DNA from: Candidatus Thorarchaeota archaeon
GTDB taxonomy: Archaea > Asgardarchaeota > Heimdallarchaeia > Hodarchaeales > Hodarchaeaceae
Direction of reading: 5' to 3'
DNA length: 32,000 nucleotides
Assembly: GCA_048882505.1 (NCBI GenBank)
Contig: JBHLRO010000010.1
Span: 1-32,000 of the forward strand
Position numbers and translations under genes: made by a program. The notes under the pieces are model-generated. The model saw only the letters and a program-made list of their open reading frames with translations. It did not search any database and was not told the origin of the DNA. Below are positions 15,320-23,273 of the stretch, piece after piece (the stretch's first letter is position 1; each line of letters begins with the position of its first letter).

Positions 15320-15802
15320 TCAGAGATAATCAACCTCATTTATCATAGGTCGAATTCTCTCGATTCTTATAGAAGTTCCTATATGTAACTTGTCAAAGAA
15401 GTTCATATGGCCCGAATCGATCCTTCCGACAAGATTAACAGGGTAGGATACCGTTTTTTGCTTAAGAAAAACGATGAGCACTGTACCCTGCGGCCAGTAC
15501 GCCACATCACCGCGCGAGAGCGTCTTATACGCATTCTCAGGTGACACTCGTCCGATTTTAAAGGGAAAAGCCACCTCCCCTTCTCGTACGACAACTCGTG
15601 ATTGAATTGGATTTTTAAGGCGAAAGCGGATTAACGCTACCGTCCGTGGAGCGAATTCCCGTTGAAGCGTGGCTTTACCGATCGTTTCTTGTCCAATAAT
15701 CGTGAATTCCATCATTACTTTCTCTGATGACATTAACCGATTCCTCTGTTCACCATCGAGTATCCAAAATGATTTCAACAATGGATATGAATTATCCGAC
15801 AA
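15320..15802 (-). CDS. Cyclophilin-like fold protein (DUF369/TM1367-like)
   Basis: LQREFAPRTV, EGEVAFP, RGDVAYWPQGTVLIVF, PVNLVGRI. The true start may be internal (ATG 15715). Confidence 0.75.
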   Translation of the reverse strand: MSDNSYPLLKSFWILDGEQRNRLMSSEKVMMEFTIIGQETIGKATLQREFAPRTVALIRFRLKNPIQSRVVVREGEVAFPFKIGRVSPENAYKTLSRGDVAYWPQGTVLIVFLKQKTVSYPVNLVGRIDSGHMNFFDKLHIGTSIRIERIRPMINEVDYL

Positions 15803-18792: not shown

Positions 18793-19023
18793 ACAAGACT
18801 CGAAACGGCCTCTTCTTGTTCCTAGAAGCCCAAATTGGGGAAGATTGAGCTAATTCTATCTGTTCTATTGCTTCAATCCGAGAGCCCAAAACCATTGGCT
18901 TTCCAAATTTTAAAGGAAAATTTATTTTAATCGAAGGCAGTCGGGTTGCCCAAGTAGAAAAAAACTACCTACCAGTACTTACACGTACTGGCGGATATTC
19001 CAAATATTCTGGTGGATTATAAC

Positions 19024-19314
19024 TTGGCGTATACGGATAAAAAAGTGAAAAAGAAACGTCGCTGGGGTAAAATCTTTGAGTATACAAGCTATCAGCGCAC
19101 TTTGCCTGTCGGCAAGGACTACGAAGAAAAGCTTGCACAATTAGAACAGGATTTTGTAAAGCGAAAGAATTTTGTCGTAACTGCCCCCGAAATAGCCACA
19201 CGACTCGATATTCGAGTATCCGTGGCCCAAAACATGTTAGATGACCTGGAAGAAAAGAATATACTAAAAAAAGGTATTTCCTCCAGACGGCTAAAAGCTT
19301 ATGTCAAGGCTTAA
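19024..19314 (+). CDS. rps25e: 30S ribosomal protein eS25
   Basis: KKKRRWGK...VVTAPEIATRLDIRVSVAQNMLDDLEEKNIL...AYVK matches the eS25 winged helix. TTG 19024 follows SD GGTGGA; the ORF track uses GTG 19012. Confidence 0.85.
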   Translation: MAYTDKKVKKKRRWGKIFEYTSYQRTLPVGKDYEEKLAQLEQDFVKRKNFVVTAPEIATRLDIRVSVAQNMLDDLEEKNILKKGISSRRLKAYVKA

Positions 19315-19412: not shown

Positions 19413-19988
19413 ATGGAGATTTTAGAAAACCTAATTATGATGAAGAGGCTTCTCAGGCAGGGCTGGTTACGTGCTGGCGTTCCCGTTGGCTCCGTTGAAT
19501 CCCTTGCGGCTCACTCATGGTCAGTAGCTTTTCTTGCTTTACTGTTTTGTATAGAAGAAAACCAGAAACGAAACGAAATCCCACTGAATCTGGAAAAAAC
19601 GGTGTTAATAGGGCTACTTCACGATTTCCATGAATCCGAGTGGTTAGATATGGATAAAAGCGTTTCTAGAATTCTTTCCCCCGAACAGCTTGAAAGAATT
19701 CAACAGGCACTCCATGAAGGGGCTGTCACTGGTATATTGTCGAAACTTCCATCTTCTTTAAGGGGAACCTTAGAAGAAATTCTCCTTGATACTGAAAGCG
19801 AAGAATACCATCTCGCTCGAGTTGCGGATCTTATGGATTTGCTAATTCAGGCAAACGCATATGGTAAGAAGCAGTTTCTTGATCCCGGACAAGTTAGTGA
19901 GTTCAGAAGGTATGCGCGGGAGGAACTGGAACAGTATGAATCGAAATTTGGCTTCTTGAAACCTCTAATCGAAAAATGGGGGATCTGA
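19413..19988 (+). CDS. HD-domain hydrolase (YfbR/HDDC2-like 5'-deoxynucleotidase)
   Basis: LKRxxRQGW-type N-terminus, ESLAAHSW, LLHDFHE, ARVADLMD. Confidence 0.88.
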   Translation: MEILENLIMMKRLLRQGWLRAGVPVGSVESLAAHSWSVAFLALLFCIEENQKRNEIPLNLEKTVLIGLLHDFHESEWLDMDKSVSRILSPEQLERIQQALHEGAVTGILSKLPSSLRGTLEEILLDTESEEYHLARVADLMDLLIQANAYGKKQFLDPGQVSEFRRYAREELEQYESKFGFLKPLIEKWGI

Positions 19989-19998
19989 AGACAACGTA

Positions 19999-21003
19999 TT
20001 AGTTTTCATTAATGAGGGGCAAAACCATTGATTCAATAAATTTGATACTGTTCTCAACGAATTGATCTGAATCAGCTAGCTTAATTCCCAGCTTGAACGC
20101 ATGAGCTTGTTCAAACAAAGGATAGTACTGGGAAAACCCTGAATCGTCACCCCAAATCTCTTGAACGGTTTCATGGATATCTGGCTTTACAAGATCTAAT
20201 TCGACAGCTTTTCTTCCAGCATAATAGCAAGCTAATGCAAAAATTATATCTATGACAGAAGATCCAATTAAAAAGTCCAATTCACCCTCAGGGAGGCCCT
20301 CTTCCTTAGCTGTGGTAATAATTTCGTCCATCTGGACCAAAGTGTCTCGCAAAATCTCTTTGGCCGATACTTTTACTTGTTGGTCGGAGATCTTGATGTT
20401 TTCAAATACGTTTGAACCAATTCTCACTTCCCCAGCTTGGGCATACAATATGTGGATGGGGCCCCAAGCTGCGCCAAACTTGTCAAGTTGAGGAATATCC
20501 TCCTCCTTCAGAATCATTAGATCAAAAATGTGGGCAACCTCGGGAGTCACAATTTCCTCTCCAATTTCATTAACCCGTTGAATTATATCTTCTCCGCTGT
20601 CAGCCGTGAGAACAACGACAAAGTTGATATCGCTCTCTCCAACCACATGGAGTCGCTTTGCATATGATCCATAAATTATAAGGGCTTTAAGATGGTTTTT
20701 AAGGACATTATCGTCTTTAAGCTTTTTAATCACCAGCTCCTCTAGCATTTCATACTCACTCGATTCATCTGCTAAGGAAACTCCTTCTTCAATCGCAAGC
20801 GACTCTATTTCGTCATCCTCCATCGCATTGGCCTTTTCAACCTCCTCTTTAACTATCTTCATGGATCCACGAACCTCAGCTTTCAAATTTGGGTTCTCAA
20901 CTATAACATTCTTCAATACAGCTGTTAAAATCGCTTCTCCTTGTTCCATGCGCGCTTTGGTGGCGTACTGGCGGATAAGAACCCTTAATTCTTCTTCGTC
21001 CAT
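19999..21003 (-). CDS. Fusion protein: archaeal GluRS N-terminal-like domain, Pol-beta-type nucleotidyltransferase, C-terminal helical bundle
   Basis: Residues 1-75 match the archaeal GluRS N-terminal pattern. IIYGSYAK...SDINFVVV...IFDLMIL is the NTase signature. The C-terminus is all-helical. Confidence 0.75.
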   Translation of the reverse strand: MDEEELRVLIRQYATKARMEQGEAILTAVLKNVIVENPNLKAEVRGSMKIVKEEVEKANAMEDDEIESLAIEEGVSLADESSEYEMLEELVIKKLKDDNVLKNHLKALIIYGSYAKRLHVVGESDINFVVVLTADSGEDIIQRVNEIGEEIVTPEVAHIFDLMILKEEDIPQLDKFGAAWGPIHILYAQAGEVRIGSNVFENIKISDQQVKVSAKEILRDTLVQMDEIITTAKEEGLPEGELDFLIGSSVIDIIFALACYYAGRKAVELDLVKPDIHETVQEIWGDDSGFSQYYPLFEQAHAFKLGIKLADSDQFVENSIKFIESMVLPLINEN

Positions 21004-21160: not shown

Positions 21161-22333
21161 TTATAACGTTTGACGTTTAATGAGTTTGTCTATTGAATTA
21201 ACAATTTCCTTTAACTGAATGCTGCTCGGTTCTTCGTCCCTTGACGCATGGTGTATCAATTCAGAAATAATTCGCCCTAATATCTCCATTTCTGGCACTT
21301 TGAATCCTTGTCTTGTAAGCTCAGCCGTTCCAAAACGCATTGCAGAATCAGTCACAAGTTTATACTTAAGAAGCATGTCTCGGTACCTGGCCCCTTGCGT
21401 AAAATCCTCTATTTGCATCAATACTTGGTGAGATTCTGTGAATCCTTTCTCTCTCCCGTGCAATGATATTTCATGTTCGTCTAAGGTTTGAGCCAAGGCT
21501 TTTGCATTTAATGTTGTTTGCATTGCATATTGAACTCCATAATGTTGAAATTCTTCTAAGGCAACCCCTAGTGCAGCTATCCGTGAGTTGTGAACGTTAT
21601 CGACCAAAACAATGCCTTTTAAGGGATCTAATCCAATAACCTCGTTGAGATTATCAAGTGCAAAATCATTTGCAAGAATAACACCCCCTTGGGGGCCAGG
21701 AAAGGATTTGTGAGTCGATCCCAGCAAGAAATCCGCACTTTCTCCTAAAGGATCTTGGAATTGCCCACCAGCTATCAATCCTAGGACATGGGATCCATCA
21801 TAAGCAACAAGGCCACCATATCCATGTACCACATCCGCTATCGGTTTAACTGGGTGCGGAAAGAGAAACAAAGAGGCCCCCAAAAAGACTAGAGGAGGTT
21901 TTTCGACTTCAAGAATCTCAATGGTTCTTGACAGGTCAATATTGTACTCTTTTGGACTCCAAGGGATATTGATGCGCTTTCTTCCAAAAAATTCAAGATT
22001 TATGGGATATCCTCCTGCTGGGTGCAAGGGTAGAATTGCTATCTTGTCTTCTGGATGTGAATGAGCTAACATCACCGCCAAAACTGCCATATTCCCTGAT
22101 AAGGGAGAAATAAGGGCCGATTTACAGTGAAATACTTTTTCAGCCAATTCTTGACTCTGAGCATAGATCTTCTGGAACACATTGGAACCACCGTAAAAAT
22201 CTGAATGGTACCGACTATGTTGGATAGACAAAGCTTTCTTGACCTGGGGGCTAAGAGTGTTCTCTGATGCTATCAGATTGAGACAGTTTGAGCGAAATTT
22301 ATCATTCTTCATGATTAGCTCCATTAACTTCAT
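21161..22333 (-). CDS. glyA: Serine hydroxymethyltransferase-family PLP enzyme, divergent
   Basis: LNLIASEN, FYGG, LSGNMA, YDGSHVLGLIAGG, GSTHKSFPGPQGG, MRFGTAELTRQG. The start is reassigned to ATG 22333 (SD GGAGA); the ORF track uses 22513. Confidence 0.88.
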   Translation of the reverse strand: MKLMELIMKNDKFRSNCLNLIASENTLSPQVKKALSIQHSRYHSDFYGGSNVFQKIYAQSQELAEKVFHCKSALISPLSGNMAVLAVMLAHSHPEDKIAILPLHPAGGYPINLEFFGRKRINIPWSPKEYNIDLSRTIEILEVEKPPLVFLGASLFLFPHPVKPIADVVHGYGGLVAYDGSHVLGLIAGGQFQDPLGESADFLLGSTHKSFPGPQGGVILANDFALDNLNEVIGLDPLKGIVLVDNVHNSRIAALGVALEEFQHYGVQYAMQTTLNAKALAQTLDEHEISLHGREKGFTESHQVLMQIEDFTQGARYRDMLLKYKLVTDSAMRFGTAELTRQGFKVPEMEILGRIISELIHHASRDEEPSSIQLKEIVNSIDKLIKRQTL

Positions 22334-22520
22334 CGCAAGGTCTCCATTTGTAAAATCACGAACTAAAGATTTAACAATTCTTATTAATTGGAACAGAGAT
22401 AGGATAGGATAAGCATTTTGGGGTGTTTCAGTCTGAAGATTTTTCTGAGATACGAAACTCACTTCACTCAATTTACTAGTACCAAGAAAAAACGAACGGT
22501 GACTGTTCATCAATTTTGAA

Positions 22521-23273
22521 GTGAACGATTTGATTGATGCACACGCCCATTTGCTTCCTGATTTTGTGGATAACGTCGAAGAACTTGTCCAAAGCGCCAG
22601 AGCCGCCGGTCTTCAAGCCATTATCAATTCTGCGATAGAACCTGATCATTATTTTTATGCGAATAATTTGGCCCGCGAACATAGTGGATTCGTATATTCA
22701 ACGTTGGGATTTTCTCCCTCACACATCAAATCGATCGATTTTGATGTTGCATACAGTCATATCAAGAATAATAGCTCACTTGTAGCAATTGGGGAAGTCG
22801 GTCTGGACTATTATTGGATTAAAGATGTTTATTGGCAAAATAAGGAACAGATCGTTTTCCAGAGGTTTATTGAACTTGCGAATGAACTGCAAAAACCCCT
22901 CGTTATTCATAGTAGGAAGGCTGAGACTGACTGCATTGATCTCTTGGAAAAACACGCAGGGGTTCCTGTTTTAATGCACTGCTTTTCAGGTACAATAGAT
23001 GATGTTAAAAGATGCTTAGATTCAGGATGGTTACTTTCAATACCAACTGCCGTTGTTAATCGGAAAAAACATCGCAGGATTGCTCGAAAGGTCCCTCTGG
23101 AATCTCTTGTGGTTGAAACCGATACTCCCTTTCTGAGCCCCATAAAGGGTGAACGTAACCAACCCGCAAATATCCGATATGCCATACAAGAAGTCGCAAA
23201 ATTGAAGGATTCTACCTTTGATGACGTAAGAAGACATACCACAAAAAATGCCAAAGAGTTTTATCGGTTATAA
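22521..23273 (+). CDS. tatD: TatD-family metal-dependent hydrolase/DNase
   Basis: DAHAHL, IGEVGLDY, IHSR, MHCFSG, VETDTPFL. Confidence 0.94.
   Translation: MNDLIDAHAHLLPDFVDNVEELVQSARAAGLQAIINSAIEPDHYFYANNLAREHSGFVYSTLGFSPSHIKSIDFDVAYSHIKNNSSLVAIGEVGLDYYWIKDVYWQNKEQIVFQRFIELANELQKPLVIHSRKAETDCIDLLEKHAGVPVLMHCFSGTIDDVKRCLDSGWLLSIPTAVVNRKKHRRIARKVPLESLVVETDTPFLSPIKGERNQPANIRYAIQEVAKLKDSTFDDVRRHTTKNAKEFYRL

Follow-up and report, generated by a model that had tools for sequence, protein, structure and literature searches.

The Arc1p and AIMP proteins of eukaryotic multisynthetase complexes share an appended domain with glutamyl-tRNA synthetase (GluRS) or MetRS and dock on these synthetases through it. 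The DZF domains of NF45/NF90 and other pseudo-nucleotidyltransferases bind nucleotides and act as scaffolds beside a module that binds nucleic acid or a partner, the eukaryotic proteins heterodimerising through DZF. Nucleotidyl transfer to tRNA 3' ends has precedents in the class I CCA-adding enzymes and the MenT toxins, which possess a full carboxylate triad and other tRNA-binding domains, and the substrate clefts of the aminoglycoside nucleotidyltransferases (ANTs) are acidic. The protein analysed here, P0001, is encoded in a stretch of 32,000 nucleotides (the window; positions 1 to 32,000 of the forward strand of contig JBHLRO010000010.1, assembly GCA_048882505.1, Candidatus Thorarchaeota archaeon, order Hodarchaeales). 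It is a real protein of two known modules, specific to Hodarchaeales and set in a housekeeping context: an N-terminal domain (N-domain) that profile and model comparisons identify as homologous to the domain appended to archaeal GluRS, and a nucleotidyltransferase (NTase) of the Pol-beta type with a C-terminal helical bundle. Literature searches returned no description of a fusion between a GluRS N-domain and an NTase. The anatomy and evolutionary history given below are well supported; the mechanism is what we infer from them.

P0001 was compared with each of these systems. It resembles Arc1p and AIMP, in manner of working only, as a non-synthetase protein with an appended domain in common with GluRS; the shared domain is GST-like there and helical here, and GluRS binding is weakly predicted here. 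The likeness to NF45/NF90 DZF, again one of working only, lies in an NTase fold with degenerate carboxylates; no specific sequence relationship is seen and the appended domains are others. Class I CCA-adding enzymes and MenT toxins belong with P0001 to the Pol-beta superfamily, and structural searches gave no specific similarity to them. ANT(9), AadA and ANT(4') (KNTase) likewise combine a Pol-beta core and a C-terminal HEPN-like domain in one chain (Z 14.7-10.8 over ~215-225 residues), but P0001 differs from them in its 11-16% identity, an Asn at the second metal-binding Asp, an extra N-terminal domain and a non-resistance context. From MNT-HEPN toxin-antitoxin pairs it differs in that no separate HEPN toxin gene adjoins it and its own HEPN-like domain is part of the fusion, with no RNase motif.

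The N-terminal domain and its counterpart in archaeal GluRS

The open reading frame (ORF) begins with ATG, and motif coordinates were re-derived from the window (Table 1). Residues 5-75 of P0001 matched positions 4-75 of the NCBIfam model for archaeal GluRS (NF003169) with E 1.6e-5. A profile of 43 fused N-domains was aligned by hhalign with a profile of Asgard GluRS N-termini, drawn from genomes sampled by a GluRS model and thus independent of the family profile, giving Prob 98.5%, E 2.1e-15 over 69 columns. Searches with the family alignment (A1) matched the N-termini of ORFs of 577-668 aa in ~50 other Asgard genomes (per-genome E 1e-8 to 1e-4), and those ORFs fetched as a sample were GluRS or GlnRS. 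An AlphaFold2 (AF2) model of residues 1-79 had a predicted local distance difference test score (pLDDT) of 89, with helices at 3-21, 26-36, 38-46, 48-60 and 63-73. Its 30 best Swiss-Prot matches in the AlphaFold database (AFDB) were all residues ~1-75 of archaeal GluRS (template modelling score (TM) by query 0.67-0.89, root-mean-square deviation (rmsd) 1.1-2.9 Å), a comparison of one predicted model with others. On these profiles and models, residues 1-75 of P0001 are a homologue of the N-terminal domain that archaeal GluRS carries as an appendage. The two have in common the extreme N-terminal position, a flexible charged linker following it, a five-helix predicted fold and the core residues Y13, A14, G22, A24, V29, P38, L40, K/R41, K/R45 and N59; the fused version differs in standing on an NTase and not on a class I synthetase body, in being acidic and not basic, and in forming its own clade.

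Archaeal GluRS all carry the appended N-domain, as does GlnRS in other Heimdallarchaeia. It has been retained in the genome's own GluRS (P0079, contig C1). No match to tRNA-synt_1c was found in P0001, where the NTase takes the place of the catalytic body of a class I Glx-tRNA synthetase. Among 5.8 billion proteins, the only length-matched hits to the N-domain profile were P0120 (74 aa, E 6e-14) and P0121 (112 aa, E 1e-8), which could be N-domains that stand alone or else pieces of synthetase genes.

No Pfam model covered the N-domain, either in P0001 or in the genome's own GluRS, and a phmmer search of whole P0001 against PDB sequences gave nothing meaningful. A Foldseek search of the PDB with the N-domain model returned nothing below E 4.9 (yeast GlnRS NTD 3tl4, E 9.6, TM by query 0.55), and VIA-align against 48,161 chains returned non-specific helical matches (best Z 6.0; human GlnRS, in the noise, Z 4.6). 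These PDB searches were empty because the GluRS N-domain is disordered in the relevant structure: residues 1-85 of Methanothermobacter thermautotrophicus GluRS (PDB 3AII) are described as disordered and named the 'YQEY domain' (PMC2978374). A relationship to YqeY/GatB could not be confirmed, and the label rests on that paper. GatB/YqeY (PF02637) gave no Pfam match to the N-domain at E<=10; in hhalign comparisons with 27 Asgard GatB/E domains the synthetase N-domain profile reached Prob 11.6 (E 0.0026, not significant) and the fused profile Prob 3.9; and YqeY structures scored within the noise (Z 4.5-4.8; 8xjg Z 4.8, rmsd 1.9 Å, 49 residues aligned).

Residues that are invariant in the synthetases have changed in the fused forms. 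The pair N17-A18, of which Asn and Ala are 100% conserved in 29 GluRS domains and Asn 100% conserved in 14 GlnRS domains, is replaced by A/V and R, and the GluRS lysines K20, K23, K27 and K32 (the G-K-A / K-A-V-M-G-K lysines) by E, E, T and L/Q. Glu at 20 and 23 is common to the fused and the GlnRS-type domains. Mean net charge of the N-domain is -2.5 in the fused forms (isoelectric point (pI) 5.4), +2.4 in GluRS (pI 8.7) and +0.2 in GlnRS. P0001 as a whole is strongly acidic (net charge -34, pI 4.45), with a net charge of -12 over residues 63-90.

The nucleotidyltransferase part, its distribution and a single origin of the fusion

Structural comparison of the model (residues 82-332) by VIA-align gave ANT(9) 6xz0 as the best match (Z 14.7, rmsd 3.9 Å, 214 aligned), followed by AadA (Z 14.4) and KNTase/ANT(4') (Z 10.8-10.9); DrrA (Z 9.9), GlnE (Z 8.1), HalB and MntA were weaker, and NF90-NF45 reached Z ~6. 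Foldseek matched ANT-type structures at E 4e-4, and AFDB clusters and the ESM Atlas agreed with an NTase/HEPN-like fold. Residues 208-334 resembled HEPN proteins (2hsb, Z 9.4 over residues 210-333; HepT, Z 8.2-8.4), and the HEPN RNase motif R.{4,6}H was found in the C-terminal half of 0/37 family members. P0001 scores below the Pfam gathering thresholds for Polbeta (PF18765; 19.0 against 26.9 bits) and NTP_transf_2 (PF01909; 16.4 against 21), with a Polbeta match at E<0.01 in 34/37 family members (best E 1.9e-6), and it reaches 21.5 bits against the NCBIfam ANT_9 cut-off of 340.

The second metal-binding Asp is Asn in all fused forms. D-x-N was found in 78/78 close homologues, and the deep lineages have D-x-N or N-x-N, the latter in two of them (P0086/L033 and P0092); in two further deep fused lineages (P0090/L034 and P0095) the third carboxylate has changed from Asp to Asn. 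Fused and unfused relatives alike keep the GS pair, K/R273 and the [KR]-L-G motif, and His158 is specific to the fused clade. Pairwise ratios of non-synonymous to synonymous substitution rates (dN/dS) within the genus, rough because dS is saturated, were ~0.1 in each of the three domains (N-domain, NTase core, helical bundle) and 0.26 in the linker, which indicates purifying selection.

Homologues of full length at >=50% identity numbered 77, all from Heimdall or Hodarchaeales metagenome-assembled genomes (MAGs). A search of 1.84 billion representatives added ~10 fused forms at 28-34% identity, those with names again being Hodarchaeales or Heimdall MAGs, and ~12 unfused forms of 235-264 aa. 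In a survey of 301 Asgard genomes the full fusion was present in 19/20 genomes of P0001's own genus and 2/2 of a second family of the same order, and in 0 genomes outside the order; the unfused NTase was common in the same class, and most genomes of the genus have it as an additional copy. An artefact of chimeric assembly or ORF calling is, with the same architecture on many independent contigs, in two single-contig genomes (G256 and G241) and in 77 close and ~10 distant full-length homologues from different sources, virtually out of the question.

Fused forms make up one clade both in the N-domain tree (ultrafast bootstrap (UFBoot) 94) and in the NTase tree (UFBoot 95). Because both halves form single clades, the fusion arose once, and the sequence comparisons place its origin in an unfused NTase of ~260 aa which many Heimdall genomes still possess. 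These unfused Heimdallarchaeia NTases (~235-280 aa; P0094, P0097-P0107) match residues ~83-330 with E 1e-18 to 1e-4 and 25-33% identity; unlike the fused clade they have no N-domain, are mostly D-x-D and lack His158.

The N-domain may have come from GluRS or from GlnRS: bit scores overlap and the fused clade sits on its own long branch. Capture of the domain from a neighbouring synthetase gene is only a lead. In Heimdall family f3 the unfused NTase is 2-19 kb away from GlnRS, and in family f4 the NTase is 22-24 kb away from GluRS; gene order gave no simple deletion path, and the neighbourhood in the window differs. The distance from the NTase gene to a cyclophilin-like gene (PF04126) is ~4 kb in the window (15323-15802 (-)) and likewise in an f3 genome (G026, L077:14415-14792), which may be a remnant of synteny between fused and unfused loci. 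In two genera of f3 (L077:9770-11178 (-) and L079:4043-5524 (-)) an unfused D-x-D NTase was found 18-20 nt upstream of a co-directional KaiC-like ATPase gene (PF06745), and in G026 this ATPase gene is followed on the same strand by genes for an M24 peptidase and GlnRS. This arrangement resembles an operon and may be a clue to what the NTase originally did.

The sequence-only reading had described an acidic protein with a GluRS N-terminus, lacking the GluRS catalytic domain and having in its place an NTase with a GSYAK-type GS and Asn for the second Asp (D125-I-N127), then a HEPN/KNTase-like bundle without RxxxxH. The ORF and each of these features were reproduced. It had also proposed that the genome's own gltX be checked for its N-domain, which is retained, and that the fusion be surveyed across Asgard genomes, where it proved to be conserved across Hodarchaeales and not confined to one contig. 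Since the N-domain matches GluRS and the fusion is conserved, neither of the two objections which that reading had anticipated holds.

Genomic neighbourhood and distribution of GlnRS

The features of the gene and its neighbours are listed in Table 1. The convergence with an HD nucleotidase gene at 10 nt and the nearby eS25 gene, both remarked on in the sequence-only reading, were found again. Being convergent, the HD gene and the fusion gene do not form an operon and are not co-transcribed. An HD gene also lies near the fusion in three deep lineages, convergent at P0084 (32% identity) and P0092 (28%) and within 2 kb (<=2 kb) at P0110. The pairing is not universal, RsmB, NDK or TldD being the neighbour in other lineages. 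Across lineages down to 28% identity, the genes around the fusion form a housekeeping set (TatD, SHMT, RsmB-like methyltransferase, Ost5, HD, eS25 and eS17e), and no defence or mobile genes were seen among the fusion neighbourhoods compared. The unfused paralogue of P0001's own genus lies among ZIP and ECF transporter genes, a context that was uninformative. The SHMT-like ORF of the window, as called from TTG, encodes 450 aa; its true start is probably internal, because the Pfam match begins at residue 62 and the homologue at L088 is shorter (390 aa).

Table 1. Features of the P0001 gene and its neighbours (window coordinates).
Feature	Coordinates	Strand	Remarks
Whole gene, P0001	19999..21003	-	334-aa fusion; stop codon 19999-20001; from ORF list and translation
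N-domain, residues 1-75	20779..21003	-	Five-helix; by profiles and predicted models a homologue of the N-terminal domain appended to archaeal GluRS and Heimdall GlnRS
Linker, residues 76-85	20749..20778	-	Acidic, low-confidence (pLDDT <50 at 77-81); ends in invariant E-Y-E (E83-Y84-E85)
Pol-beta-type NTase core, residues 86-200	20404..20748	-	Weak Pfam Polbeta/NTP_transf_2 matches; MNT and ANT structural matches
G112-S113 of the hG[GS] nucleotide-binding motif	20665..20670	-	Invariant in fused and unfused relatives
D125-I-N127, [DE]h[DE] metal-binding dyad with Asn for the second carboxylate	20623..20631	-	
D161, third carboxylate (catalytic-base position of ANT enzymes)	20521..20523	-	Invariant in the close family
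HEPN-like/KNTase-C-like helical bundle, residues 201-334	20002..20403	-	Without RNase motif; conserved K273 and K304 (R in relatives), then G306
eS25	19012..19314	+	PF03297, 30 bits; near the fusion also in L074, L086, L088
HD-domain YfbR-like 5'-deoxynucleotidase	19413..19988	+	PF12917, 52 bits; convergent, 10 nt from the fusion stop
SHMT-like	21161..22513	-	PF00464, 84.6 bits; same strand as the fusion; SHMT also near the fusion in L088
TatD-family hydrolase	22521..23273	+	PF01026, 215 bits; near the fusion also in L074, L087, L088

Distribution of GlnRS was recorded alongside that of the fusion. The Heimdall families f3 and f7 have GlnRS ORFs of 640-687 aa with an N-domain; those at L023:234-2174, L025:171-2090 and L077:6401-8353 (640-651 aa) scored 643-675 bits with TIGR00440, above its cut-off, and carry a GluRS-type N-domain. 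GlnRS was found in 12/21 genomes of P0001's own genus, as ORFs of 578-602 aa without the N-domain; in G256, of the same genus, the enzyme (L083:805-2523) is 572 aa long and has no N-domain, and upstream of GlnRS in two other genomes of the genus the N-domain profile gave no match. No GlnRS match was found in the window's genome (94.5% complete), which has a GatE-like protein, and the fusion likewise goes without a GlnRS match in three or more further genomes of the genus that are >=90% complete. GatB_Yqey gave no match in the two f3 genomes checked. In one small Asgard genome (L028, G010:C85:17400-19552) the GluRS frame is open far upstream (1227-aa open frame); the upstream stretch is hydrophobic, resembles transmembrane helices and represents either a preceding ORF that shares the frame or an N-terminal extension of an unusual kind.

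Possible function and its meaning

P0001 is tentatively read, with somewhat less than even confidence and from sequence comparison and models, as an adaptor or regulator of the NTase fold that binds nucleotides, has little or no activity and carries a docking domain re-purposed from a synthetase. Asn would have taken the place of the second metal-binding Asp at the base of the fused clade, further carboxylates being lost in later lineages. The NTase part would then bind nucleotides and show little if any canonical two-metal transferase activity, as a pseudo-enzyme like NF45/NF90 DZF; it is read as such because carboxylates were lost while the G-S pair, the basic residues of the helical domain and purifying selection remain. 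The synthetase-derived domain would serve as a docking module, to GluRS or to a partner of the GluRS N-domain, and would not bind tRNA directly, and within the housekeeping of Glx-tRNA or of translation the protein would have the role of a regulator or adaptor, not that of an enzyme modifying tRNA ends.

Docking was modelled with the genome's own GluRS and residues 1-80 of the fusion, using alignments for both sides. The prediction was marked 'weak support' (score 0.38, best control 0.00), with contact agreement between runs of >=81% and partner pLDDT >=78. The support mark was reached by 58/80 solved complexes and 2/110 mismatched pairs; scores of <=0.60 were obtained by 7/80 of the former and both of the latter, so a pass in this range is more often wrong than right. 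Several points weigh against the adaptor reading, and the weakness of this prediction, used as a lead only, is one of them; the docked model may merely reproduce the likeness of the fused N-domain to GluRS's own. D-x-N is found in three unfused paralogues too and is hence not unique to the fused forms, and D125, D161 and E123 are invariant, with many surrounding residues, in P0001's own genus. Asn can ligate Mg2+, so that, judging by sequence, a one-metal or otherwise non-canonical transferase reaction may occur in that genus. Six basic positions of the N-domain (R7, R18, K31, K41, R45 and K52) are kept in the family, K/R41 and K/R45 being shared with the synthetase domains, and given these the fused N-domain may bind RNA.

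The sequence-only reading had preferred an active enzyme, its synthetase-derived domain reaching tRNA(Glx) or a translation protein to which nucleotides are added, perhaps with the HD hydrolase as remover, in the manner of the NTase and HD parts of GlnD. For such an enzyme speak the homology of the N-domain to the domain labelled 'YQEY' in the 3AII paper (PMC2978374), taken with the help that YqeY/GatB-tail modules give to tRNA binding in Deinococcus radiodurans GlnRS (PMC1865053); the invariance in the genus of GS, D125, D161 and the basic residues of the helical domain; the recurrence of the HD gene beside homologues of ~30% identity; and the protein AMPylases among the structural neighbours (DrrA, GlnE, MntA). 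It is nevertheless unlikely, and the claim that tRNA ends or a translation protein are nucleotidylated found no support: every fused form, the 78/78 close homologues and all deep lineages included, has Asn for the second catalytic Asp, more carboxylates are gone in four deep lineages, and the N-domain is acidic and has lost synthetase-invariant residues and lysines. The Asn in the dyad and the changed residues and charge of the N-domain therefore argue against a simple tRNA-binding arm that delivers an active transferase. The HD gene also speaks against it, being convergent, hence not co-transcribed, and replaced by RsmB, NDK or TldD in other lineages. An ANT-like enzyme acting on a small cationic metabolite (aminoglycoside-like, or a polyamine), with the N-domain as an unrelated stabilising or oligomerising appendage, would fit the best structural matches (ANT(9), AadA and KNTase, the last at Z 10.9) and the acidity of the whole family, unfused paralogues included. 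This is very improbable in view of the low ANT(9) score, the degenerate dyad, a housekeeping context free of resistance or biosynthetic genes, and an N-domain constrained as strongly as the rest of the protein.

The N-domain on the NTase might also be a trans-acting replacement for the one that GlnRS of P0001's own lineage lacks, assisting GlnRS or the handling of tRNAGln. The complementary distribution, with GlnRS N-domains in f3 and f7 against none in the genus, is in line with this, as are the Glu residues at 20 and 23 and the proximity of the f3 unfused NTase to GlnRS. What weakens the idea of such a helper is that several genomes of >=90% completeness have the fusion but no GlnRS match, among them the window's own with its GatE-like protein instead; the fused clade, moreover, does not fall inside the GlnRS clade of the N-domain tree, and this explanation has little chance of being correct. 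A more specific form of the adaptor reading makes P0001 an archaeal counterpart of the multisynthetase scaffolds, docking on GluRS or on GluRS-tRNA(Glx), with a degenerate NTase pocket that would sense nucleotides and couple them to Glx-tRNA formation; this is an improbable but conceivable arrangement.

If the scaffold version were true, such a factor would have emerged in the order of archaea regarded as nearest to eukaryotes, and in eukaryotes aaRS appended domains on non-synthetase proteins are the route to multisynthetase complexes and extra synthetase functions. The family offers a clean case, of single origin and within Hodarchaeales, of a GluRS/GlnRS N-domain duplicated onto an unrelated enzyme fold, after which the catalytic dyad decayed and the N-domain surface ceased to be basic. 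The fused paralogue gives a second handle on the function of the archaeal GluRS N-domain. Should P0001 dock on GluRS or tRNA(Glx), Glu/Gln decoding would have a new regulator in a lineage in which the direct (GlnRS) and the indirect (GatDE) route both occur; otherwise the protein would represent a well-defined family and a natural example of pseudo-enzyme evolution.

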